Assembly (NCBI GenBank): GCA_003230085.1
Contig: QIGV01000154.1
Span: 1,702 to 65,701, forward strand
From: Gammaproteobacteria bacterium
Lineage (GTDB): Bacteria > Pseudomonadota > Gammaproteobacteria > SZUA-140
Direction of reading: 5' to 3'
DNA: 64,000 nt
Shown here: positions 2 to 10,768 of the stretch, one piece after another
Layout: each line of letters begins with the position of its first letter
Position numbering within the stretch: position 1 is the stretch's first letter
Notes under the pieces: model-generated
What the model was told of the DNA's origin: nothing
The model's input: the letters and a program-made list of their open reading frames with translations, nothing else
Database searches by the model: none
Translations under genes and position numbers: made by a program

Positions 2-577
2 CTGAATAATGCGGGCATCGTCAGTGAAAAAAGTATTATCAAGGCTGATGCCAGTTGTCGGACCAATGTGCCACACATCTTTGCGGTCGGCGATGTGATA
101 GGTGGCCTGATGTTGGCCCACACCGCAGGACAGCAGGGGCGGGTAGCGGCTGCAACGATTACCGGTGAACTAGCAACATATGATCAGGATAAGGATTGCG
201 GGGTAATCTTTACCCGACCCCAGGCTGCATTTGTTGGTTTGTCAGTCGCACAAGCCAAGGCCAATGGTGTGGATGCAGTTGAAGTCAAAATGCCCTTCAG
301 CATTGATGCCAAGGCCATGATTACCAATGAGACACTGGGCATGATCAAGATTGTGGCCGACAAAACCAATCGCCGAATTATCGGCGTTCATTTCCTGGCA
401 GACCATGCAGATACTTTGATCGGTGAGGCTGTGATGATGGTTGCAGGTCATATGACTCTCGACCAGGTTGCCGGCGCTATTCATCCTCATCCCACCCAGA
501 CCGAAATGTTTGGTGAGATGGCGAGACGGTTGCTGTCGCGTTTGAAGCGGTCGGCTAGAAAGGCAGAGAAAAGATAA
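2..577 (+). CDS. FAD-dependent pyridine nucleotide-disulfide oxidoreductase, C-terminal part (dihydrolipoyl dehydrogenase-like); 5' end lies outside the window
   Basis: Frame 2 is open from position 2. It reads ...TNVPHIFAVGDVIGG... followed by a C-terminal dimerisation domain ending HPHPTQTE, typical of the Lpd/Gor/MerA family. Confidence 0.7.
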   Translation: MNNAGIVSEKSIIKADASCRTNVPHIFAVGDVIGGLMLAHTAGQQGRVAAATITGELATYDQDKDCGVIFTRPQAAFVGLSVAQAKANGVDAVEVKMPFSIDAKAMITNETLGMIKIVADKTNRRIIGVHFLADHADTLIGEAVMMVAGHMTLDQVAGAIHPHPTQTEMFGEMARRLLSRLKRSARKAEKR

Positions 578-597
578 AAGAGTATACTGTCCTGTTA

Positions 598-637
598 ACT
601 CCCTCTCCCTCAGGGAGAGGGTTGGGGTGAGGGGGCA
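598..637. repeat. REP-like palindromic element, family 1 (CCCTCTCCC-TCA-GGGAGAGGG then TTGGGGTGAGGGGG), partial copy
   Basis: Direct reading. The same GGGAGAGGG / TTGGGGTGAGGGG motif recurs at 33235, 51592 and 60175. Confidence 0.8.
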
Positions 638-679
638 ATAAGAGAAGCATTGAAAATAGTAGCCTGAAGCACAAACACC

Positions 680-1891
680 ATGTCTGAAATCAAAAAAGTC
701 GTACTTGCCTATTCCGGTGGCCTTGATACCGCTGTCATTCTGCGTTGGCTGCAGGAGACCTATGGCTGTGAGGTGGTTACCTTCACCGCCGACATCGGGC
801 AGGGTGAGGAAGTTGAGCCCGCCCGTGCCAAGGCCGAGGCGTTGGGGGTGAAGGAAATCTATGTCGAGGATCTCTGTGAGGCGTTCGTTCGCGACTATGT
901 TTTTCCCATGTTTCGAGCCAATACCATCTATGAGGGAGAGTACCTGCTGGGTACGTCCATTGCCCGGCCGCTTATTGCCAAACGTTTGGTCGAAATTGCA
1001 ACGGAGACGGGCGCAGATGCCATTTCGCATGGCGCTACTGGCAAGGGGAATGATCAGGTGCGTTTTGAATTGGGCGCCTACGCACTTAAGCCAGATATTC
1101 ATGTGATTGCACCGTGGCGGGAATGGGATCTGAATTCGCGCGCGAAATTGCTGGCATACGCTGAGCAACACGGCATTCCTATTGAAAAGAAACGCGGCAC
1201 GAAATCCCCCTATTCTATGGATGCCAACCTGCTGCATATATCCTATGAAGGTGGGTGTCTTGAAGATCCCTGGTGTGAGCCGGAACAGGACATGTGGCGC
1301 TGGTCTGTTGCGCCGGAGCAGGCACCGGATCAGCCGGTTTATATCGAGCTTTCTTATGCGAATGGTGATATCACAGCCGTCAATGGCGAGGCCATGAGTC
1401 CTGCCATAGTTCTGGCGACCTTGAACCAGCTCGGTGGGCAAAACGGGATTGGTCGCCTTGATATTGTGGAAAACCGCTATGTGGGTATGAAGTCCCGGGG
1501 TTGTTATGAAACGCCAGGTGGCACGATCATGCTCAAGGCACATCGCGCCCTGGAGTCCATTACACTGGACCGTGAAGTCGCCCATCTCAAAGATGAATTG
1601 ATGCCACGTTACGCCAGCCTGATATATAACGGTTACTGGTGGAGCCCTGAGCGGGAGATGCTTCAGAACATGATCGATATGTCTCAGGCAGTAGTGAATG
1701 GCGAAGTGCGCCTCAAGCTGTATAAGGGTAATGTTCAGGTCGTCGGCAGGAAGTCAGATGATAACAGCCTTTTCGACGCAGATATCGCCACGTTTGAAGA
1801 CGATAAAGGAAAATATGATCAAAAGGATGCTGCAGGATTCATCAAGCTCAATGCCTTGCGATTGCGGATCGCAGCACGTTTAAAAAAATAA
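680..1891 (+). CDS. argG: argininosuccinate synthase
   Basis: 403 aa. N-terminus [10 protein letters not shown] (PP-loop) and full-length similarity to type I ArgG. Confidence 0.95.
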
Positions 1892-1957
1892 TGACTGCCC
1901 TGATGGATACCAACCGGAATTGATCCAGAAGTACGCCTAATATAGGACTGACCAATC

Positions 1958-2359
1958 ATGACGTATCGTTTTCTATTCATATCACTTTGGCTGGTGTTAA
2001 TCGGTGCCTGCTCGGAGCAGCCAGGCGGCACGGTGCTCCATGCGGGAGATTATACGGTCAGAATAAACACTGACCCCGACCCTCTGGAGGTCGGAGAAAA
2101 GGCGCAGTTTCTCGTCAGCATCTTGAATCAGGACGGCCAGAATATCGATAACTGTCGCGCTGAGTTTCGCCAATATATGCCCGGCATGGAGATGTCTCAG
2201 GATAGCGTGTTCGTGGAATTGGTGGCAGGTAATGGCCGCTATCAAGGACAGAGCAGCGAATTTCGTATGGGGGGTGACTGGGTGCTGGAATTCAAGATTG
2301 CCTGCGCTGGTGATACTCAAGTGCTTAAAATGGAACAGACACTGGAATGGCCGGAGTGA
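1958..2359 (+). CDS. small lipoprotein, possibly a YtkA/FixH-like periplasmic metal-binding domain
   Basis: Signal peptide with lipobox LIGAC and a Met-rich MPGMEM motif. 133 aa. Confidence 0.5.
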   Translation: MTYRFLFISLWLVLIGACSEQPGGTVLHAGDYTVRINTDPDPLEVGEKAQFLVSILNQDGQNIDNCRAEFRQYMPGMEMSQDSVFVELVAGNGRYQGQSSEFRMGGDWVLEFKIACAGDTQVLKMEQTLEWPE

Positions 2360-2373
2360 GCTTAATGTTGTCG

Positions 2374-3960
2374 TTATTGTGATATCAGAAGCCCTGATTT
2401 TGCAAAGAACTTAAGACTGCTTTCCAGACCATTCTCAACAAGCTTATTAAGGTCAGCTCCTTGTGCCGATGCAGTGTTATCGGTGGGTGTGTTGAGAGTG
2501 CCATCTTCATAGAGTGACAGCATTGCCTGATTCAGTTCCCGAATCTGCCGCGTCCCATCCAGAAGGGTTAGTAAATGGCAGGATAATTCATTTATCCCGA
2601 CATTCTCATTCCACGCAGAAACAACAATATTGCCTGACTGCGCCTGAATGCGGGCAAACGGCACGGCTATCGGTCTGTGTCCGGCGTCGTGGTCAACAGT
2701 CGACACAGGAGGCTTGTCGGCGGTAATGTTGATCATGCTGAATGCGCGGGCCTGCAGTAATTTGGTGTACAGCAATGCGACGTCTTGTTCCAGGGCATGA
2801 TCTTTTACCGGGTTTTTCTGATTGTACGCAGGCAGCTGCGTTTCCACCAATTGACAGAATGTCATTGCCTCAGGATAAATAGCGATAAGATGCTTCATAG
2901 CCCCTTGAAATAAAGGGTTTTGTTCGACCATGACACCACCCCCGCTATTTCTGAAGCTGGATATGCCAGTTGATCGCTGGCCATTCGGGGGATCGAAAAC
3001 CTGTGCCATAGAGGAAAAATAAAGCGATTTTGCCGGATTGCTTTCGAGTATCCTGGAGTGTAAAGAAATTTCTTTATGGCAAAATAACGAGCAGCGGAAA
3101 TTACGGTTGACCAGGAAATCAAAATGCTGCTCAAAGTCGATCAAATCCCGAGAAATGGGATTGAGTTTGCTGGATATTTCAGGAGATTGACTAGTGAACT
3201 CCTTGCCGATAAAGGTGGCATCGCCTAAGTACTGAAGGTCAAGCGCCTCTCCCTTTTTTACAATCTCGTGGAAGTAGAAAGCATCATTGATTTCCCCGAG
3301 ATATTCATGAAGTAGATAAGAGTGATTATTGCTGCTGACCTGGGTCTGGATCTGTTTAAGCAGGAACATATAGGCGTTGTTTTGCGTCGGTATGATGCCC
3401 GTAATTTTTTCCAGATAGGCAATTGCCTGGTTCACACCTTCTTCAGGGTCTTTATAATCATTGAATCGGTAGAGCATGATGTCACGTACAGTGCCGTTGA
3501 TATGCCAACCGGGAAGGGTGTTATAACTAAGATAGGCGATACCATTAGGGGTCAACAGTGTTTTGCAGATTTGAAAGACTTTGTCCCGCACATGACCTGG
3601 TATCCATGAATAGATACCGTGGGCAATGATATAGTCAAATTGTCCCATACGCTCATCGATATCCAGAATATCCATGCAGTGTAGCTCGGTATTGCTGAGT
3701 CCCAGCGTCCTGGCGGTTGATTGGGCCGCCTCTATCTGGCGTTCAGAGTTATCGATACCAATAAATTCGCTACCCGGATAAAGTGTTGCTATCGGGAACA
3801 GGTTGCCTCCCTGGGCGCATCCCAGCACTAACACCCGGCAATGATCGACTGCCGTTGGGCTCAGGCCATAAAGGGTACCGATAGCGGCCAGATTCCTCGG
3901 GTGTGCGTTGGGGAATGCGCGGATATCATATGGCACCTTGTCATAGATGTATTCTGTCAT
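2374..3960 (-). CDS. class I SAM-dependent methyltransferase with C-terminal methyltransferase-regulatory domain (PKMT-like), paralog 1
   Basis: 528 aa. N-terminal Rossmann MTase motif VLVLGCAQGGN...IGIDNSERQI...DYIIAHGIYSW, with a long C-terminal domain. About 75% identical to the adjacent gene. Confidence 0.75.
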   Translation of the reverse strand: MTEYIYDKVPYDIRAFPNAHPRNLAAIGTLYGLSPTAVDHCRVLVLGCAQGGNLFPIATLYPGSEFIGIDNSERQIEAAQSTARTLGLSNTELHCMDILDIDERMGQFDYIIAHGIYSWIPGHVRDKVFQICKTLLTPNGIAYLSYNTLPGWHINGTVRDIMLYRFNDYKDPEEGVNQAIAYLEKITGIIPTQNNAYMFLLKQIQTQVSSNNHSYLLHEYLGEINDAFYFHEIVKKGEALDLQYLGDATFIGKEFTSQSPEISSKLNPISRDLIDFEQHFDFLVNRNFRCSLFCHKEISLHSRILESNPAKSLYFSSMAQVFDPPNGQRSTGISSFRNSGGGVMVEQNPLFQGAMKHLIAIYPEAMTFCQLVETQLPAYNQKNPVKDHALEQDVALLYTKLLQARAFSMINITADKPPVSTVDHDAGHRPIAVPFARIQAQSGNIVVSAWNENVGINELSCHLLTLLDGTRQIRELNQAMLSLYEDGTLNTPTDNTASAQGADLNKLVENGLESSLKFFAKSGLLISQ

Positions 3961-4025
3961 TTAATTATTGCCTGATTAACAATTTGATATCTATCGCAGT
4001 TGTAATGGTTCATTAGAGCCAATGA

Positions 4026-5621
4026 CTACTTTGTCAGCAAGAGCCCGGATTTTGCAAAGAATTCAAGACGGCTATCTACCATCTTTTTTATAATCTTAAC
4101 GTACTCGTGGCTCTGTATCGATGCAGTGTTTTCGATGGGAATCTTGAGGCTGCCATTCTCGTGGCGTGATAACATCTCTTTTTTCAGCTCCCGGATTTTC
4201 CGCGTTCCATCCAGGAGGCGCAGTAAATGGCAGTCAAACTCAGTCAATCCGACATTTTCATTCCATGCAGAAACAACAATATTCCCTGACTGTGCCTGGA
4301 CGCGAGCAAACGGTGCAGCGACAAGTTTGTGCTCAGAGGAGTACGCATGGCTAACAGTCACCACAGGGGGTTTGTCGATGGTAATGTTGATCAGGCTGCT
4401 TGACCGCGCCTGTAACAATATTTCGTATAGTAATGCAATGTCTTGTTCCAGGGCCTGGTTATTTTCAGATTGCTGCAGTTTAAATGCCGGCAGTAGAGTA
4501 TCCAGCAGCTGATTGAACGTCACCGCCTCGGGATAAATAGCGATTAGATGCTTCATGGCGCCCTGGAATAAAGGGTTTTGATCAGTCATGACACTACCAA
4601 AGCTATTTTTGAAACTGGATATACCCGTCGATTGCTGGCCATTCGGGGGGGTGACAATTTGTGCCATTGAGGAAAAATAAAGTGGCCTGGCCGGATTATT
4701 TTCGGGTATCTTTGGGCGTATAGAAAGACCTTCGTGACAAAATAACGAACAGCGGAAAACGCGGTTGATCAGAAAATCAATGTGTTGCTCAAAGTCAATT
4801 AAATCCCGTGTGATAGGCATGATCTCTCTGGAAGTTTCAGGGGATTGGCTAGCAAACTCCCGACCGATAAAGGTGGCATCGCCCAGGTACTGAAGACCAA
4901 GCGCCTGCCCCTTTTTTACTATCTCATGGAAATAAAAAGCATCATTATCTCTTTCAAGGTAATCATGCAGTACATAGGCGTGATCTTTGCTGCTGACCTG
5001 TGTTTGCTGGATCAGTTTGAGCAGAAACATATAGGCGTTGCCTTGCGTCGGTATAATGCCCGTAATTTTTTCCAGATAGGCAATCGCCTGGTTCACGCCT
5101 TCTTCAGGGTCTTCATAATCATTGAATCGGTAGAGCATGATGTCACGCACAATCCCGTTGAAATGTCCGCCAGGTAGTGCGTTATAACTGAGATAGGCGA
5201 TGCCATTGGGAGTTAGACGTGTTTTACAAATTTGAAAGACTTTATCCCGCACATGACTCGGTACCCATGAGTAGATGCCGTGGGCAATAACATAGTCAAA
5301 TTGCCCCATGCGCTCATCGATATCCAGAATATCCATGCAGTGCAACTCGGTATTGCTGAGTCCCAGTGTGTCGGCAGTTGATTGGGCCGTTTCTATCTGG
5401 CGTTCAGAGTTATCGATACCGATAAATTGACTGTCTGGATAAAGGGTCGCAACCGGGAACAGATTGCCTCCATGGGCGCATCCCAGCACTAACACCCGGC
5501 AATGATCGACAGCCGTTGGGTTCAGGCCATAAAGGGTGGCGATAGCGGCCAGATTCCTCGGATGGGCGTTGGGATAAGATTGAGTGACATACGGCACCCT
5601 GTCATAGATGTATTCTGCCAA
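4026..5621 (-). CDS. class I SAM-dependent methyltransferase with C-terminal methyltransferase-regulatory domain (PKMT-like), paralog 2
   Basis: 531 aa. Collinear with paralog 1 along the whole length; the same MTase motifs are present. Confidence 0.75.
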   Translation of the reverse strand: MAEYIYDRVPYVTQSYPNAHPRNLAAIATLYGLNPTAVDHCRVLVLGCAHGGNLFPVATLYPDSQFIGIDNSERQIETAQSTADTLGLSNTELHCMDILDIDERMGQFDYVIAHGIYSWVPSHVRDKVFQICKTRLTPNGIAYLSYNALPGGHFNGIVRDIMLYRFNDYEDPEEGVNQAIAYLEKITGIIPTQGNAYMFLLKLIQQTQVSSKDHAYVLHDYLERDNDAFYFHEIVKKGQALGLQYLGDATFIGREFASQSPETSREIMPITRDLIDFEQHIDFLINRVFRCSLFCHEGLSIRPKIPENNPARPLYFSSMAQIVTPPNGQQSTGISSFKNSFGSVMTDQNPLFQGAMKHLIAIYPEAVTFNQLLDTLLPAFKLQQSENNQALEQDIALLYEILLQARSSSLINITIDKPPVVTVSHAYSSEHKLVAAPFARVQAQSGNIVVSAWNENVGLTEFDCHLLRLLDGTRKIRELKKEMLSRHENGSLKIPIENTASIQSHEYVKIIKKMVDSRLEFFAKSGLLLTK

Positions 5622-5646
5622 GGTGTGTCTGCCTGATTAATTCGGG

Positions 5647-6720
5647 TTATTTCTGACGCAGCTGTAGAGGATCATCGGGATCAACGCCTTCCATAAAGGG
5701 AAGCCGGCGGTCGCTATTCGTGATCTGATAGACCTTGCCAATCCAGTTGTTGATAACAGATTCTGCTGTATCGTGCCAGGTATTGTGCAGGGTGCGGGTA
5801 ACCACCTTCTCGGGGAATTCCGGCATGACTTGTTTACTGCTTCTGGCCGCCATGACCTGGTCTTTGTGCTCATCGAGTATGGCCTTGGTTTTCAGGGTAA
5901 AATAATTTTCCGGATAAGGCGGGTAGTCCACACGATCATATTTGGCATAGCGGATGACTTCTCGCTTGTATTCTTTCATTAGACTGATGATGTCATATTC
6001 AGGGTGACCCTGAAAAAAGACAGCCCTGAAAAGATCAGCGCTGACAGCCAGGTGCACACCGGCCTCGCGGCTCTCCACCAGCACATGGAGTCCCGCGGCC
6101 TCAAATTGTTTTCGTCCTACCTGATTGAAGCGGGAGTGAGGAACTTCGAACAGTGTATTGACATCATTCACCAGGGGGTGCTTACGGTCAGTCACCCGGT
6201 GGGTAAACACGCCCCAGCGTTTGGATGGGAGCAGACGGCGTTTTTGACCATAACGAAACTGTAGAACGGCATGAGTGGCCAGGCAGGAACAAAGCGTTGA
6301 TGTGACATTTTCCAAAGCCCAGTCGATGACATCAATCAATGGCTCCCAGAAGGGTTCCAGGGCAAGATCCGGCTGGGTTACATTGGCGCCGGTAATAATC
6401 AATGCATCCAGTCCGCTTTCCTTCAGCTGCTCAAAGGTTTCATAAAAATTCTCGACATATTCGCTAGTTTTGGCACTACGCTTAATCTCCTTCAGGGAGA
6501 AAGGATGCATATAAAACTGTGCGATCTGGTTACTTTCACCCACCAGCCGAAAAAATTGTCGTTCGGTTGCCTCCAGGGCAGCGTCCGGCATCATGTTGAG
6601 CAAGCCGATATGCAGCTCCCGGATGTCCTGCTGCTTTGCACAGTCAGGCGTCAGCACGGTGATGCCTTCCTTTTTCAGTTTTTCAAAAGTCAGCAGGTTT
6701 GATGGGGCTACCAGTGGCAT
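5647..6720 (-). CDS. metA: homoserine O-acyltransferase (MetA family)
   Basis: 357 aa. Collinear with E. coli MetA, including LNLMP, GAP..L.E/DV.YW, HVTSTL and GHPEYD blocks. Confidence 0.9.
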   Translation of the reverse strand: MPLVAPSNLLTFEKLKKEGITVLTPDCAKQQDIRELHIGLLNMMPDAALEATERQFFRLVGESNQIAQFYMHPFSLKEIKRSAKTSEYVENFYETFEQLKESGLDALIITGANVTQPDLALEPFWEPLIDVIDWALENVTSTLCSCLATHAVLQFRYGQKRRLLPSKRWGVFTHRVTDRKHPLVNDVNTLFEVPHSRFNQVGRKQFEAAGLHVLVESREAGVHLAVSADLFRAVFFQGHPEYDIISLMKEYKREVIRYAKYDRVDYPPYPENYFTLKTKAILDEHKDQVMAARSSKQVMPEFPEKVVTRTLHNTWHDTAESVINNWIGKVYQITNSDRRLPFMEGVDPDDPLQLRQK

Positions 6721-6753
6721 CGCTGTTCTCTTATATGATTATTTCAAGGTTAT

Positions 6754-7602
6754 CTATTGGGCCTTGCGCGCGATGGCTTGTTCCACCAGGGCGATAAAGC
6801 CTTCTTCCGAATCCACTCGGGCAAGTTCCTCTGTGGTGATGGTATACCCATATCGGTCTGCAATCGCCTCATAACGGGGAATGCGCGAATAGAAAAGCTT
6901 GGGGAATATCCAGCGTACAAAATCATCAGGATCGATCACGGCGACGTATTGCAGATCTTTTTCCATCATATAGATCGCCAACTGTTCATCCAGGAACGCC
7001 TCGCGGTAATACAGTGGTTTGGGATCGTTCTGGGCGCGCTGAATCAACTCTTGTTCATCCTGAGTCGATGCCTTGATATAGAGAATAAGCGTATGTTCAT
7101 TCAGCACGCGCATCACCTCGGTGCCATCCAGTTCACAGATACTGCCGCCGGCGTCATTGATAAAATTCCTGTAACCGTATATCCCCTGCGCTTTCTGAAT
7201 AAATGCAGGCACATCCATCATGGCGGAGATCTCCGCCTGGCGATGTAGGTCCTGGCGGTGCATGAACTCTTTCAACGGCAGGCCATCCAGTTCAGGATTG
7301 CCTAGCTTGCCTAGAAAGCTGGACACCGGTTGCAGATTATAAACAGTAATGTTGTTATTGATATAAATTGAATCGGTCTGCAAAAGGTCACGCAGGAATG
7401 GGACCTGCATGGCTTTTTGCTTGATATTGTCCAGTATCGCCTCATCCAGATAGCGGGTGCCGATCCGGTAATCTCCAGAAAAATGGAACCAGTTCTGATT
7501 CATCAGCAGATTGGCAAGGCGAGTCTTACCCACACCGGACATCCCCAGCAGGGTAATACATTTATTTTCCCAGTCACGGAATTGATCGACATTCAGCTTC
7601 AT
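6754..7602 (-). CDS. P-loop kinase-like protein of the shikimate-kinase/AAA_33 fold, unknown function
   Basis: 282 aa. Walker A LLGMSGVGKTRLANLL at residue ~18; later a DAGGS block (compare ATGGG in AroK) and a KPLYY block (compare RPLL in AroK). Stop is 34 nt upstream of the metA start on the same strand. Confidence 0.55.
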   Translation of the reverse strand: MKLNVDQFRDWENKCITLLGMSGVGKTRLANLLMNQNWFHFSGDYRIGTRYLDEAILDNIKQKAMQVPFLRDLLQTDSIYINNNITVYNLQPVSSFLGKLGNPELDGLPLKEFMHRQDLHRQAEISAMMDVPAFIQKAQGIYGYRNFINDAGGSICELDGTEVMRVLNEHTLILYIKASTQDEQELIQRAQNDPKPLYYREAFLDEQLAIYMMEKDLQYVAVIDPDDFVRWIFPKLFYSRIPRYEAIADRYGYTITTEELARVDSEEGFIALVEQAIARKAQ

Positions 7603-7670
7603 TCAATATTTCCTGCACATAGAACTGCCATAAATATACCACCAACACCGAATCAGGGGCAGATTTTATG

Positions 7671-7756
7671 AAAAAACCGGGGTCAGACTTAAGTTTTCAG
7701 TGCATTGGCGTGTGTCAAAAGGTAAAAAAGAAACTACAGTCTGACCCCGGTTTTTG
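7671..7756. repeat. hairpin repeat family 2, copy 1 (AAAACCGGGGTCAGACT...AGTCTGACCCCGGTTTT)
   Basis: Inverted repeat with ~13-bp perfect arms and a ~40-bp spacer. Related copies are at 38087 and 59486. Confidence 0.85.
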
Positions 7757-7785
7757 GTACATTTTCTCTAATGCAACAATGATAG

Positions 7786-8082
7786 GTGAAAAACATGAAT
7801 GGTCCCTCTGAAAAGGATGATGGCGTTATTACTGTTCTGATGCAGCGGCTGGAAACCCAGCGACTGCCGCGTGTACTGACACTAAAGGACAAGGTCGACA
7901 ACGGAGAAGTACTGAGTGAGTATGACCTCACGTTTCTGAGCAAGGTTTTTCAAGATGCGAGTCAGGTGAAATCACTTTTCGATCGACACCCTGAATATCA
8001 GGATCTGGCGGCCCGGTTGGTACACCTGTATCGCGAAATTACGGACAAAGCGCTGGAGAACGAGCAGAGTAATAAGCAGTAG
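7786..8082 (+). CDS. hypothetical protein
   Basis: 98-aa ORF in an otherwise empty gap; no recognisable motif. Confidence 0.35.
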   Translation: MKNMNGPSEKDDGVITVLMQRLETQRLPRVLTLKDKVDNGEVLSEYDLTFLSKVFQDASQVKSLFDRHPEYQDLAARLVHLYREITDKALENEQSNKQ

Positions 8083-8233
8083 TTTCATACTGCCTGATAC
8101 GGAGAGGATATATTTTTGAGCTAGTTCTCGATTTCTTTATTTGGTAAGCCTGTTTCGATGACCGTCGAACTTGCAATACTACGTATTATTAGTGGGATTG
8201 CTAAACGACATCTATGTGTCACACGGCTTAATT

Positions 8234-8731
8234 TTACCCGGTCATGGCCTTTTTGGTTTCGTCGAGCGTTATCATTAAGGTCATATCATTCGTCAGAGAT
8301 TTACGAAAACCCCATTGCTGATAAAAATTTCTGGCTTTATCTGTTAGTGCATGAACAAGCAGGGCACGGATCCCTGCCTGTTCTGCAACAATAATAGTGC
8401 GCTGAATGGCGTCCTTCAGCATTCCGGTTCCCATTTGCTTACCTTGCCAATCAACATCAACTGCTAATCGACCCAGTACCATCACGGGTATGGGGTCAGG
8501 CATATTTCGCCGTATTTTTCCTGAAGACTCTTCTCTGGTGATAGCGCCTACTGCTAGTGAGTAATATGCAATAATGGTATTGTCTTCGCACACGACAAAA
8601 GTTCGTGAGGCGCCGCTGTTTTCGTTCTTTATGGCGCGACGCTGCAGCCAGTCATTAAGCGTCGTGTCTCCACAGTCAAAAGCAGTAATATCATGTGTGC
8701 CAGCAATGGGGCAGGGGGCGCTTATTCCCAT
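8234..8731 (-). CDS. GNAT-family acetyltransferase toxin of a type II TA system (TacT/KacT-like)
   Basis: 165 aa. GNAT core LGRLAVD...QGKQMGTGMLKDA. Overlaps the upstream DUF1778 antitoxin gene by 10 nt. Confidence 0.8.
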   Translation of the reverse strand: MGISAPCPIAGTHDITAFDCGDTTLNDWLQRRAIKNENSGASRTFVVCEDNTIIAYYSLAVGAITREESSGKIRRNMPDPIPVMVLGRLAVDVDWQGKQMGTGMLKDAIQRTIIVAEQAGIRALLVHALTDKARNFYQQWGFRKSLTNDMTLMITLDETKKAMTG

Positions 8732-8997
8732 GGCGCTTTGCGCGCCATGAGATTGCGTAGCGTGGGATTGTCTTTGACGGGTGCATCCAGCGTCGCCATG
8801 AAGGCGTTAAAATCCGCCTCGTTGAGTCTGAAGAGTTGCTGATCCAGCAGAATATTTTCGGCTTCGCGGCAGGCGGTTTCCAGCATAAAATCTGAGCGGT
8901 TTTTACCTAGTATAGTGGCGGCCCTGTCAATCAAGCTGCGTTGTGATTCCAGTGCACGCAAATTGATAGGGGCTGTACGGGTTGCGGACTGTGCCAT
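8722..8997 (-). CDS. DUF1778 (RHH) antitoxin, TacA-like
   Basis: Pattern INLR..ES.RSLIDRAA..LG.NRSDFMLE.A...F.AF...LDAP matches TacA. Start taken at MAQSATR, which has a GGAGA RBS; the ORF track begins 20 codons earlier. Confidence 0.75.
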   Translation of the reverse strand: MAQSATRTAPINLRALESQRSLIDRAATILGKNRSDFMLETACREAENILLDQQLFRLNEADFNAFMATLDAPVKDNPTLRNLMARKAPWE

Positions 8998-9062
8998 ATC
9001 GATATCTCCAGGAACGATGATGATGTTTAGTATATTGTATATCGGATAGATATACAATTGCT

Positions 9063-9362
9063 TTATGGATGGCTAGGTGTGTGATGCAACTTTACAGTGC
9101 GCTTATGCGTTATCTTGCCAGCACCAACGGTATCAAGAACATATGTTAATAGCTCGATTTCAGTGTTGCTGATGCTGATGGCAAGCTGATGGTTTTCATT
9201 ACGATGTTTCCGGCACAGCGTCACGGTGCCTTCTCCGTCAATCAGGCCGGCAATGTAGGCGGTATCGGTGGGTGAAAGCGGATTGACTGTTCGGTAAGAA
9301 ACCATCCTTGGTTCTCTCTTGTAGTAGACAATAAAATGGCCCTGGCATCTTTCCAGGGCCAT
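9063..9362 (-). CDS. truncated single-motif LAGLIDADG homing-endonuclease-like ORF (probable remnant)
   Basis: YIAGLIDGEGTV motif followed by HQLAISI...LLTYVLDTVGAGKI, collinear with the beta1-beta2-alpha region of I-CreI-type enzymes. Only 99 aa, and it ends where the fold should continue. Confidence 0.55.
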   Translation of the reverse strand: MALERCQGHFIVYYKREPRMVSYRTVNPLSPTDTAYIAGLIDGEGTVTLCRKHRNENHQLAISISNTEIELLTYVLDTVGAGKITHKRTVKLHHTPSHP

Positions 9363-9367
9363 GCTGT

Positions 9368-10004
9368 TGGTGGAGGCGGCGGGACAGCTTATCCAAACCT
9401 TTCGGAATGGGCTGGACTATACCTTCATCCTGTTGCCAGGATGCGGGGCGTGTTATTCACCATGTCGTTTTATGGCAAATCCTAGTGCTGGCTCGGTCCT
9501 GTCGGACTCAGCCAGTCTATGAGTCTCTACAGGGCAGGCCTGAGGTTAGCCCTCTTCCTACCCCTCGGTATTGCCCTGACAGCCTGTGCTGCTTTAGGTT
9601 TCACCGATGTGAGCCCCGTTATTCACTTTACCCTTACGGATAAAGGCGACCCGTGTTGATCGAACCCGCGTCCGCAAATCCTCTGCCTTCGGTTCTACAT
9701 GCTTATCCGCGTCAATTAGTTTAACTGCTTGCTACCCGACGGGCAGGGAAGACAAACAGCGAGTCCGGTAAGAGTTTAACGAATCCACCCCGGACGAGCT
9801 TCATCGCGATTCTGTGAGAGATGACGCCTGAGGTCTGAACGCACAGACACGGCTTCAGTCAGACGGCACCCTACTGGGTTTTAAGCAGCGAGTGCGTAGT
9901 TGTCGTCGTTGGCAACTATAAGGTTGCAGCTGGATTTACGAGGTTGTCTGCCCCTCGACATGCACCTAAGGTTTCGCGACCCACGTCGAAGCCAAGTCGC
10001 CCCC
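9368..10004 (-). ncRNA. ssrA: tmRNA (ssrA), apparently interrupted in the T-loop by a group I intron. Exon 1 is complement 9659..10004 and exon 2 is complement 9368..9384.
   Basis: 5' GGGGGCGACUUGGCUUCGACGUGGGUCGCGAAACC...; tag ORF GCCAACGACGACAACUACGCACUCGCUGCUUAA encodes ANDDNYALAA*. The sequence aligns with E. coli ssrA through PK4 to GCGGGUUCGAU, is then interrupted, and resumes with UCCCGCCGCCUCCACCA. Joining the two parts gives a 7-bp acceptor stem with G3:U70, the T-stem GCGGG/CCCGC, a 7-nt T-loop and 363 nt in total. Confidence 0.85.
9385..9658 (-). other. putative group I intron within the ssrA T-loop (~274 nt)
   Basis: 5' exon ends in U and the insert ends in G. An IGS GUCG pairs with exon CGAU (P1). 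There is an S-like element AAGGUAUAGUCC and an R-like element GUAGAGACUCAUAGAC. GNRA hairpins are present (UUUAUCC-GUAA-GGGUAAA and CC-GAAA-GG). Confidence 0.6.
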
Positions 10005-10117
10005 TTGATGTTTATTATATAGGTTCAGAGGAAAGATAAAAGATAAAAGAGGAAAGATAACGAAGCTATTATATAATTGGTTGTTTTTTGTATCTTTTAT
10101 CTTTTATCTTTGCTCTT

Positions 10118-10597
10118 TTATCTGATCTTAAGGAGCCGCTGCTTTTCCCGTGCCCAGTCGCGTTCGCGTTCATTGGCGCGTTTGTCGTGCTGTTTTTTGC
10201 CCTTTGCCATCCCGATTTTGAGTTTTGCCAGACCACCTTTCCAGTACATGCTGACGGGGACCAGGGTATAGCCCTTGCGTTCGACGGCGCCGATCAGGGT
10301 GCCGAGTTCCTTGCGATGCAAGAGTAACTTACGGGTGCGAAGGGGGTCAGGATTGATATGGGTGGATGCGGTGGGCAAAGGCGAGATATGGGCCCCAAAC
10401 AGCCAGGCCTCGCCGTTTTTGATGGTGACGTAGCTTTCTTTGATCTGGATGCGGCTGGCTCGCAGGCTTTTGACTTCCCAGCCCTCCAGTATCAGGCCGG
10501 CTTCAAATTGATCTTCGATGAAATAATCATGAAATGCCTTTTTGTTCACCACAATGGTGTTGTCCGGCTTTTTGGATTTTGATTTGCTTTTTGCCAT
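10118..10597 (-). CDS. smpB: SsrA-binding protein
   Basis: 159 aa; [12 protein letters not shown]...[10 protein letters not shown] motifs; lies immediately upstream of ssrA. Confidence 0.95.
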
Positions 10598-10768
10598 GTG
10601 TGGACGATGTCTGTATAGGTCTTGGGTGTCAATATCGGGATATTTTGCCGGGTATTATACACACCCGTTCGCATGCGGTTGAGAGATCTGGGAAAATCCC
10701 CCACAATAGCCCGCTGTTGGGAATTTCAGGTATGGTATGTCTACTGGTTGGAGCAGCATGGGGAGAGT

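Follow-up and report, generated by a model that had tools for sequence, protein, structure and literature searches.

A truncated LAGLIDADG endonuclease gene behind an intron-containing ssrA, and its probable origin in a two-part homing unit

We analyzed a 64,000-nucleotide stretch of contig QIGV01000154.1 from a gammaproteobacterium of the GTDB lineage SZUA-140 (the whole stretch is referred to as the window), in which a short open reading frame (ORF) with a LAGLIDADG motif lies directly downstream of ssrA, the gene for transfer-messenger RNA (tmRNA), which is itself interrupted by a group I intron. The ORF is almost certainly a truncated member of an ssrA-associated endonuclease family, and a consistent architecture around ssrA is present in ~160 public loci. 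Based on sequence comparisons, the window probably holds the decayed half of a two-part homing unit, that is, an ORF-less intron together with an extragenic endonuclease that would cut the T-arm DNA of ssrA. Somewhat less firmly, we lean toward a reading in which the enzymes of this family cut the uninterrupted T-arm as partners of the intron. Taken alone, the window ORF is an ordinary pseudogene fragment; its interest lies in the family-wide architecture that it exposes.

The endonuclease remnant and its break point

A preliminary description of this DNA had noted an ORF with the motif AYIAGLIDGEGTV beginning 5 nucleotides (nt) past the CCA end of the tmRNA gene, and this is confirmed: the ORF occupies 9362..9063 on the minus strand, starts with ATG, and encodes 99 amino acids (aa). 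The ssrA gene upstream of it does contain an intron, as was claimed, based on Rfam tmRNA and Intron_gpI matches. The ~99-aa product holds as an open frame but not as a coding sequence (CDS). Homologs begin at the equivalent of M20 (MASYRTVN...), and the product that starts there is 100% identical to an 80-aa database protein (P0001), so the real CDS is 9305..9063 and encodes 80 aa. Its ATG at 9305 lies 62 nt after the CCA and is preceded by a GAGAG/AAGGA ribosome-binding stretch. The upstream ATG, at 9362, coincides with the first base of the ssrA terminator hairpin, and the first 19 codons of the 99-aa ORF overlie the terminator.

The part of this CDS that is homologous to other endonucleases comprises codons 1-78 (234 nt, 9072..9305, minus strand). 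When full-length relatives were searched against the window with tblastn, only their residues 1-78/79 were covered (9305..9069), and in a DNA alignment with three relatives (alignment A3), homology ends after ...CACACACCTAGC (...CCTAGC) at 9072. The window shares 84% DNA identity with L205, the locus of the closest full-length relative, across 10004..9073, and homology to L205 ends at 9073. The breakpoint falls at 9072|9071 and is followed by a junction-encoded tail, CAT CCA TAA (His-Pro-stop; 9063..9071, minus strand), that is unrelated to the relatives; the window protein ends ...KLHHTPS|HP*, and the relatives continue for ~70 residues further. All frames of the 64-kb window were searched for the missing C-terminal half, with full-length relatives and their C-terminal halves alone as tblastn queries, and nothing rose above noise (E>0.05). 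With relatives of 145-152 aa and a window copy that stops at codon 78, the earlier proposal of a truncated or decayed LAGLIDADG endonuclease gene is supported. The word decay is apt in that the gene is broken, but point-mutation decay is rejected because unrelated DNA begins abruptly at the break, where a tacA-tacT cassette has replaced the rest of the gene. Two further candidates were also rejected: a chance origin of the ORF, in view of its hundreds of protein matches at E=1e-45 to 1e-24, and an intron-encoded endonuclease gene, in view of the 3' exon and terminator that separate the intron from the ORF. Judging from its sequence, the ORF is a family member by descent, and a fragment rather than a complete member.

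Mapped onto an AlphaFold (AF2) model of the full-length relative P0002, the remnant keeps helix alpha1 with the motif, strands beta1 and beta2, helix alpha2, strand beta3, and a loop. Absent from it are strand beta4, four C-terminal helices, and the invariant residues N85, Q87, Y102, K103, R106, and N121-Y124. Because beta4, the C-terminal helices, and the invariant K103 are missing, the remnant should be dead as a nuclease; this status follows from the missing structure and not from sequence decay.

The ssrA gene and its intron

The 5' exon of ssrA (9659..10004, minus strand; Rfam tmRNA, 168.5 bits) begins with the tmRNA 5' end GGGGGCGAC at 10004 and contains a tag reading frame that ends ...ANDDNYALAA. 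It ends ...GCGGGUUCGAU, running through the T-loop nucleotides UUCGAU, with U-1 at 9659, and was matched by nhmmer in 70+ loci. A group I intron of 274 nt that lacks an ORF follows (9385..9658, minus strand; Rfam Intron_gpI, 27.3 bits, E=2e-4), with its omega-G at 9385, and is inserted between the 6th and 7th T-loop nucleotides. The 17-nt 3' exon, TCCCGCCGCCTCCACCA (UCCCGCCGCCUCCACCA), was located by exact match as a single copy in the window (9368..9384, minus strand). It comprises the last T-loop nucleotide, the T-stem 3' strand, the acceptor 3' strand, and the CCA, whose end is 9368, and its sequence is identical in most related loci. The Rfam matches themselves span 9657..9996 for tmRNA and 9393..9668 for Intron_gpI, the latter scoring below the gathering score of 50; the tmRNA match to the gene (9368-10004) stops at the intron.

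Predicted splicing would join the exons as GGGUUCGAU|UCCCGCC, restore the T-loop as UUCGAUU, and yield a tmRNA of 346 + 17 = 363 nt. With the covariance-model match, U-1, omega-G, and a T-loop restored by predicted splicing, the window ssrA has the features expected of an intron-form tmRNA gene. ARAGORN, run on the whole window, reported no tmRNA and no tRNA; it missed ssrA because the intron hides the gene, which the Rfam tmRNA model found.

We compared the intron with 169 homologous introns at the same site, which are 253-389 nt long and every one of which ends in CTG. An RNAalifold consensus of 13 diverse copies contains 77 pairs, of which 42 show compensatory changes; in P1, all 13 sequences keep the U-1/G pair. 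The window intron retains 74 of the 77 consensus pairs. This orphan intron appears intact and still looks functional.

An intrinsic terminator of ssrA lies between the CCA and the endonuclease start (9327..9362, minus strand; terminator scan), consisting of a stem-loop at 9362..9336 with a 10-bp stem and a T-rich tail, TTTATTGTCT. A comparable hairpin and T run occupies the same interval in L001, L007, L017, L021, L053, L062, L081, L082, and L205. Automatic gene calls often start the endonuclease within the ssrA terminator or even at the CCA (e.g., P0008 and P0011). Together, the gene missed by ARAGORN and the misplaced endonuclease starts in databases are a warning for annotation.

The endonuclease family: homologs, fold, and selection

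As a query, the 99-aa ORF has 510 database homologs, the best full-length match having E=4.5e-39 and 91% identity. The close homologs (145-152 aa) carry Pfam LAGLIDADG_1 or LAGLIDADG_3, and the nearest ones are from uncultured Gammaproteobacteria and from Thiogranum, Thiohalophilus, and Thiohalobacter-like metagenome-assembled genomes. In a profile search, the window ORF falls just below the Pfam thresholds, scoring 21.5 for LAGLIDADG_3 (cut-off 22.5) and 18.3 for LAGLIDADG_1 (cut-off 23.1), but its full-length relatives pass: P0002 scores 30.4 and 27.5, respectively, and among 47 full-length relatives, LAGLIDADG_3 is found in 47/47 and LAGLIDADG_1 in 46/47 (E<=0.01). Since the window ORF alone is below threshold, the family assignment rests on the full-length relatives. 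These carry LAGLIDADG proteins at this place; an unrelated full-length protein, which would have spoken against the earlier interpretation, was not seen.

A profile of the 47 relatives matches I-MsoI (1.5e-13) and I-CreI (~4e-4) in the PDB, as well as the bI3 LAGLIDADG maturase (2ab5, E=1.4e-6). The AF2 model of P0002 (pLDDT 88.2, pTM 0.82) consists of H12-25, E26-32, E39-47, H50-60, E64-67, E79-84, H85-98, H102-117, H126-141, and H146-151 (H, helix; E, strand), and it superposes over its full length on I-CreI, I-MsoI, and I-CvuI with template-modeling (TM) scores of 0.70-0.73 and a root-mean-square deviation of 2.5 A over 147 columns. The full-length relative thus has the complete alpha-beta-beta-alpha-beta-beta-alpha core and C-terminal helices, and the window copy, which ends at residue 78, does not. 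The I-CreI-like pattern that had been read from the ORF is therefore borne out by the Pfam matches of the relatives, the PDB profile matches, and the AF2 superposition. Altogether, sequence and model place the family with the single-motif, homodimer-type LAGLIDADG homing endonucleases of the I-CreI/I-MsoI kind.

The relatives resemble I-CreI, I-MsoI, and I-CvuI in length (~150 aa), in having one motif, in fold (TM ~0.7), and in the retained metal-binding acidic residue; they differ in that sequence identity is ~20%, and the window copy represents the first half only. I-CreI, I-MsoI, and I-CvuI are intron-encoded in organelle 23S rDNA, whereas the ssrA family is extragenic. D23, G24, E25, and G26 are invariant in the 47 relatives, and E25 of GLIDGEG is the predicted catalytic Glu. 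We take it to be aligned with D20 of I-CreI (alignment A2 against the I-CreI sequence), and K103 is presumably the counterpart of I-CreI K98 in the same kind of comparison. Intact endonuclease genes are under purifying selection, with a median ratio of nonsynonymous to synonymous substitution rates (dN/dS) of 0.15 (range 0.06-0.52; 29 pairs). The dN/dS values and the invariant catalytic Glu suggest that the enzyme is functional in the relatives. Viral contigs contained only distant relatives (<=40% identity), with no sign of phage carrying this clade.

Position of the endonuclease gene across loci

To place the family in its genomic setting, we assembled 85 loci, 79 from a genome scan and six via exact-protein look-up, including two duplicate pairs. 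These were scored by nhmmer with the window 5' exon, intron, and endonuclease fragment, and by a regular expression for the 3' exon. An ssrA 3' exon lies <=330 nt upstream on the same strand in 78 of the 85. Among these ssrA-adjacent loci, 74/78 have an intron at the same T-loop site (55 with the endonuclease intact, 17 degenerate, and 2 cut by the contig end), and 4/78 have an uninterrupted ssrA. In the Methylophaga loci, the intron was missed by nhmmer, yet a diverged intron is present at the same site. The remaining seven of the 85 comprise three with <100 nt of upstream sequence, two arranged tail-to-tail with ssrA, and two cyanobacterial outliers (36% identity). Counted over the evaluable proteobacterial loci, the endonuclease gene adjoins ssrA in 80/80. 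Its start usually lies ~35-120 nt after the CCA (~165-185 nt in two loci), with most loci at ~20-100 nt in the regular-expression search for the 3' exon, and wherever the sequence was read, this start lies past a terminator hairpin.

Because the genome loci had been picked by their endonuclease, we also scanned metagenome contigs independently of it, using as the pattern only the conserved 3' core of the intron and the 3' exon. This yielded at least 120 metagenome loci; among the matches listed, 9 had too little downstream DNA and 111 were informative. A member of the endonuclease family directly follows the CCA in 80 of those 111 listed matches (72%), of which 50 are intact, 2 intact but inverted, 22 degenerate, and 6 cut by the contig end. 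Among these, intact copies begin 36-121 nt past the CCA, except for one at 202 nt. In the 22 degenerate listed copies, the alignment ends at residues 31, 51, 52, 59, 69, 78, 82, 85, and 93; in some, what is left is the C-terminal part alone.

No endonuclease homolog was detected inside any of the 169 same-site introns. A longer intron of 641 nt at the same T-loop site, in L124 (JFJP01031730.1, 2739-3379), contains a 137-aa LAGLIDADG ORF (3287..2874) that is antisense and 41% identical to the extragenic family. Four loci (L067, L073, L107, and L148) have the endonuclease gene in the opposite orientation, tail-to-tail with ssrA, and the gene ends ~30-50 nt from the CCA (~40 nt in L067, 3001-3484). 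Its association with ssrA is kept even where its orientation is reversed.

Of the two readings put forward earlier for a gene outside the intron, a trace of the intron's mobility or a free-standing endonuclease that targets the ssrA 3' region, the latter is strongly supported by the family-wide position next to ssrA. This position had been called unusual, which is true relative to the literature but not for the family, in which it is the norm. Full-text literature searches, with most subscription journals outside their coverage, found no description of an endonuclease gene downstream of ssrA.

T-arm state and a proposed homing mechanism

All three loci with a canonical uninterrupted T-arm (L069, L070, and L082) have dead endonuclease genes: that of L069 is truncated, that of L070 has an early stop, and that of L082 (Thiogranum longum) has a TAT->TAG change at codon 84 followed by decay. 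Intact endonuclease genes are found at 0/3 canonical intronless T-arms versus 55/72 intron-bearing ones (one-sided hypergeometric p ~0.017, with small numbers). Endonuclease state tracks T-arm state. The sole intact gene beside an intronless ssrA encodes 143 aa in L062 (2553-3490). There, the T-stem carries a compensatory double change (GCGAG...CTCGC versus GCGGG...CCCGC), and a near-canonical copy of the T-arm lies distally. From its sequence, L062 looks like a case of target-site resistance achieved without an intron.

The DNA of the uninterrupted T-arm reads GGACGCGGGTTCGATTCCCGCCGCC, or GGACGCGGGTTCGATTCCCGCCGCCTCCACCA with the acceptor. With its flanks, GGACGCGGGTTC-G-ATTCCCGCCGCC, it is symmetric at 7/12 positions, and the intron is inserted 2-3 nt from the center. 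A T-arm is a natural inverted repeat, and pseudo-palindromes are what homodimeric LAGLIDADG enzymes such as I-CreI and I-MsoI use; such enzymes are expected to recognize a pseudo-palindromic site of ~22 bp.

In collaborative (trans) homing, an ORF-less intron is paired with a free-standing endonuclease that targets the site where this intron inserts, and a carrier of the intron is protected by it (PMC3984707; PMC2790892). Two features of such a unit are seen here, an ORF-less 274-nt intron and a free-standing endonuclease gene that adjoins the intron-containing gene. We propose that the intron and the endonuclease gene form a two-part homing unit of this collaborative type. A homodimeric enzyme would cut the pseudo-palindromic T-arm DNA of an uninterrupted ssrA; this cleavage by the family we infer from sequence. 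The intron would split the target site and make its carrier immune, and by splicing out it would leave the tmRNA working. Repair of the cut recipient would then copy the intron, the 17-nt 3' exon, the terminator, and the endonuclease gene. The window may represent an end state of the element, in which the endonuclease gene has been lost and the orphan intron retained.

Distal copies of the ssrA 3' end

In many relatives, the unit extends beyond the endonuclease gene. In L001, 15 nt after the endonuclease stop, TTCGATTCCCGCCGCCTCCACCA provides an uninterrupted T-loop, T-stem 3' strand, acceptor strand, and CCA. We aligned a canonical 42-mer to the 300 nt after each endonuclease stop in 149 loci, and ~30 of them repeat the T-arm, acceptor, and CCA distally, as an intronless copy. 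The left edge of the copy is almost always at or inside the T-stem 5' strand (CGCGGG..., GCGGG..., CGGG..., GG..., TTCG...), not beyond it, and 1-nt deletions in the acceptor strand recur. The copy in L205 (6454-6540) has a complete T-arm, an acceptor strand with a 1-nt deletion, and a decayed duplicate of the ssrA terminator, indicating that the duplicated segment can reach ~75 nt. In relatives, the unit thus consists of the 5' exon, intron, 17-nt 3' exon, terminator, endonuclease gene, and a partial intronless ssrA 3' end. The 64-kb window has no second ssrA 3' end: a 23-mer search (<=3 mismatches) gave 0 matches, and a 17-mer search (<=2 mismatches) gave the functional copy only.

Under the proposed mechanism, the distal T-arm-to-CCA copy would be the displaced or duplicated right-hand break end of the recipient, joined after the endonuclease gene had been copied, and it would mark the right-hand junction. 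The copy may later serve as a short right homology arm, and could matter as such because ssrA-downstream DNA differs between genomes, although we consider this role doubtful.

Weighing the proposal against alternatives

Several observations weigh against collaborative homing as we propose it. The endonuclease gene of L062 is present without an intron, and among the matches listed in the metagenome scan, 31/111 (28%) have an intron-bearing ssrA without a detectable endonuclease gene. Pairwise identities of the intron, endonuclease, and SmpB, compared over 43 loci, correlate weakly (rho 0.20-0.34), and the endonuclease tracks SmpB better than it tracks the intron (intron-endonuclease rho 0.20, partial 0.13 when controlling for SmpB). 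No pair of near-identical endonucleases in divergent hosts was found among the 43 loci, so that recent horizontal movement is not visible in them. Some distal copies hold a complete T-arm, and these would be open to self-cleavage unless the site extends further 5' or small changes protect them. In form, the distal copy also reportedly matches an attR of integrase elements with a T-loop crossover. Lastly, no relaxed constraint is visible in the remnant, whose window-specific branch carries 12 synonymous and 2 non-synonymous changes (intact L205, 11 and 1).

Part of this evidence would be expected if the intron and the endonuclease gene were independent tenants of one hot spot, so that their co-occurrence reflects shared descent and not cooperation. 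The endonuclease gene could then be selfish and free-standing, or it could travel as cargo on a minimal ssrA-integrating element equipped with its own replacement 3' end. The intact gene without an intron in L062, the 31/111 listed intron-bearing loci that lack the gene, and the endonuclease identities that follow SmpB more than the intron all fit such tenancy, as do the distal repeat that begins at the T-stem 5' edge, reportedly like a T-loop-crossover attR, and the variable island zone after ssrA (Wadjet genes in L083; tacAT in the window and L037). It accounts less well for the 72% co-occurrence among the listed matches of a sample picked irrespective of the endonuclease, and for the intron in 74/78 ssrA-adjacent endonuclease loci. 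Canonical uninterrupted T-arms occur only beside dead endonuclease genes, the interval of only ~0.55 kb from ssrA to the distal copy has no integrase, and L124 provides an in-intron relative of the kind predicted by the collaborative-homing pathway. Overall, we regard independent tenancy as unlikely. The element looks old and largely vertical in the 43-locus sample, by what is a weak test.

An apparently vertical pattern, together with purifying selection, would also suit a protein that is useful to its host, for example one that acts mainly as a maturase aiding tmRNA intron splicing and is kept for that purpose; the profile match to the bI3 maturase points the same way. Against this, the catalytic acidic residue is kept (GLIDGEG, with invariant E25), full-length structural comparison finds its best matches in the homodimeric nucleases I-CreI, I-MsoI, and I-CvuI, and intron pairing is intact where the endonuclease is dead or absent, both in the window and in the metagenome set (among the matches listed, 22 degenerate and 31 absent of 111). 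A maturase as the main role of the family therefore seems highly improbable.

The substitution counts bear on one more alternative, in which the 80-aa product is a retained functional N-terminal fragment, either a dominant-negative anti-homing partner or a small DNA- or RNA-binding helper. For the former, it is conceivable that the dimerization helix pairs with incoming full-length monomers and poisons them. The frame is open, a ribosome-binding stretch precedes ATG 9305, the product matches a called protein at 100%, and further relatives of 82-89 aa exist on long contigs; moreover, the 12 synonymous and 2 non-synonymous changes resemble those of intact L205, and the independently truncated pseudogene of Thiogranum longum has 13 and 2. 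These counts are too small to separate recent truncation from constraint. Stable folding is doubtful with beta4 and the four C-terminal helices of a compact fold missing, the last two residues and the stop codon come from the junction with unrelated DNA, and the scattered break points in the 22 degenerate copies among the listed matches fit random decay. A functional fragment is thus very unlikely in our assessment, if not quite so improbable as a maturase role. Either the window and Thiogranum truncations are recent, or the N-terminal fragments are kept for some reason.

Comparison with known systems

Two collaborative cases are known, both from phage: psbA of cyanophage S-PM2 with F-CphI, and nrdB of phage T4 with mobE (PMC3984707; PMC2790892). 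The ssrA loci are like these in that intact endonuclease genes occur with interrupted or mutated T-arms, and dead ones with canonical uninterrupted T-arms. They differ in several respects: the ssrA unit is in bacterial chromosomes and its host gene encodes an RNA, the tmRNA; its enzyme is of the LAGLIDADG homodimer type and not HNH or EndoVII-like; its endonuclease gene lies past the terminator of the host gene, only ~80 nt from the intron; many units have a partial duplicate of the gene 3' end; and the ssrA units are known from sequence alone. The ssrA locus type is thus collaborative-homing-like, yet chromosomal, LAGLIDADG-based, located in an RNA gene, and accompanied by a duplicated gene end.

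The tmRNA database contains 883 T-loop group I introns from 21 phyla, with a U(-1)/omega-G rule, a mean length of 293 nt, and a main site called "position 7" (PMC11915505). The window intron conforms, being a T-loop intron of 274 nt with U -1 and omega-G, and its site is "position 7" if that numbering refers to the gaps between nucleotides, starting ahead of the first loop base. Only 36/883 (4.1%) of the database introns hold an endonuclease gene, after P9 or in P7.1, compared to 54% of archaeal rRNA introns (PMC11915505). In the type described here, by contrast, the endonuclease gene is outside ssrA, and among the matches listed in the metagenome scan, 72% of these introns have one. The database survey trimmed flanks and counted in-intron endonuclease genes only (PMC11915505), and because of this trimming it could not see extragenic ones.

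Integrase islands at ssrA (CP4-57 type) also use the ssrA 3' end, supply a replacement 3' end, and leave a partial direct repeat downstream. The ssrA unit differs from them in having no integrase, in its total size of ~0.85 kb, and in the intron that splits the site; the window is without any repeat. An integrase-type island at the window ssrA was rejected, since no integrase is encoded by the neighboring ORFs from 242 to 8082 (methyltransferases, homoserine O-succinyltransferase, a P-loop protein, and unknowns) and no direct repeat was found in the 64 kb.

Flanking genes and the replacing DNA

In the window, a tacA-tacT cassette (8234..8997, minus strand) stands where the C-terminal half of the endonuclease and the distal ssrA repeat would be expected. 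It comprises tacA (8997..8722; Pfam TacA1, PF08681, 91.5 bits) and a GNAT toxin gene, tacT (8731..8234; GNAT domains, 30-37 bits), which overlap at 8722-8731 and by their gene content constitute a TacA-TacT (GNAT) module. The first recognizable feature of the replacing DNA is a perfect 10-bp inverted repeat directly upstream of tacA, ATTGTATATC / GATATACAAT, with arms at 9034-9043 and 9049-9058 that are 5 nt apart (9034..9058; repeat search). Its sequence and position suggest that it is likely the tacA operator. A sigma-70 promoter scan found nothing around the endonuclease gene or tacA. With the endonuclease 3' half, ~70 codons are gone, and by analogy with the closest relatives, a partial intronless copy of the ssrA 3' end would have been lost as well.

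At the DNA level, the downstream flank of the window is common to 0 of 204 loci compared (L205-L207 were compared separately), and megablast of 8000-10700 against complete E. coli genomes gave no match; the source organism is not enterobacterial. A tacAT homolog is present in L037, 1.7 kb after the endonuclease gene, and tacAT cassettes recur in the ssrA-downstream zone. In L083 (2976-7730), Wadjet-type defense genes (JetD_C, MukB-like) begin immediately past the distal ssrA repeat. Behind the unit lies a variable zone, an island or defense hot spot, as seen in L083 and in the tacAT cassettes of the window and L037.

Upstream of ssrA on the same strand is smpB (10118..10597, minus strand; Pfam SmpB, 199 bits), which encodes the tmRNA partner protein, and the gene order SNF transporter-smpB-ssrA is common to the window, L001, L081, and L205. 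A 40-nt imperfect inverted repeat (80% complementary, with AAGATAA-like units) between the smpB stop and the ssrA 5' end has its arms at 10020-10059 and 10091-10130 and flanks TATATAAT boxes; this 10020-10130 repeat may be smpB terminator and/or ssrA promoter architecture. Further away, two adjacent paralogs of ~530 aa encoded at 2374-5621 combine Methyltransf_31, MethyTransf_Reg, and PKMT winged-helix domains; next come a gene for homoserine O-succinyltransferase (5647-6720) and one for a P-loop protein with a faint nSTAND3 match (6754-7602).

Implications

Taking the loci together, we suggest, only tentatively, that they represent an overlooked and widespread proteobacterial two-part ssrA element, made up of an ORF-less T-loop intron, which would confer immunity and preserve tmRNA function, and an extragenic I-CreI-like T-arm endonuclease, in many cases with a portable partial copy of the ssrA 3' end that would provide right-hand homology for entry into genomes with unrelated DNA downstream of ssrA. 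If true, collaborative homing would here be seen for the first time in a chromosome and for the first time with a LAGLIDADG enzyme. Such an element would also explain why tmRNA introns look almost endonuclease-free: the in-intron figure of 4.1% left open how these introns spread to 21 phyla, and in the proteobacterial intron type the endonuclease gene is simply outside ssrA, past the terminator. If the enzyme cuts the uninterrupted T-arm, such introns are predicted to block T-loop-targeting integrase islands at ssrA, and the family would provide a new I-CreI-like scaffold whose 20-25-bp target is both defined and highly conserved.

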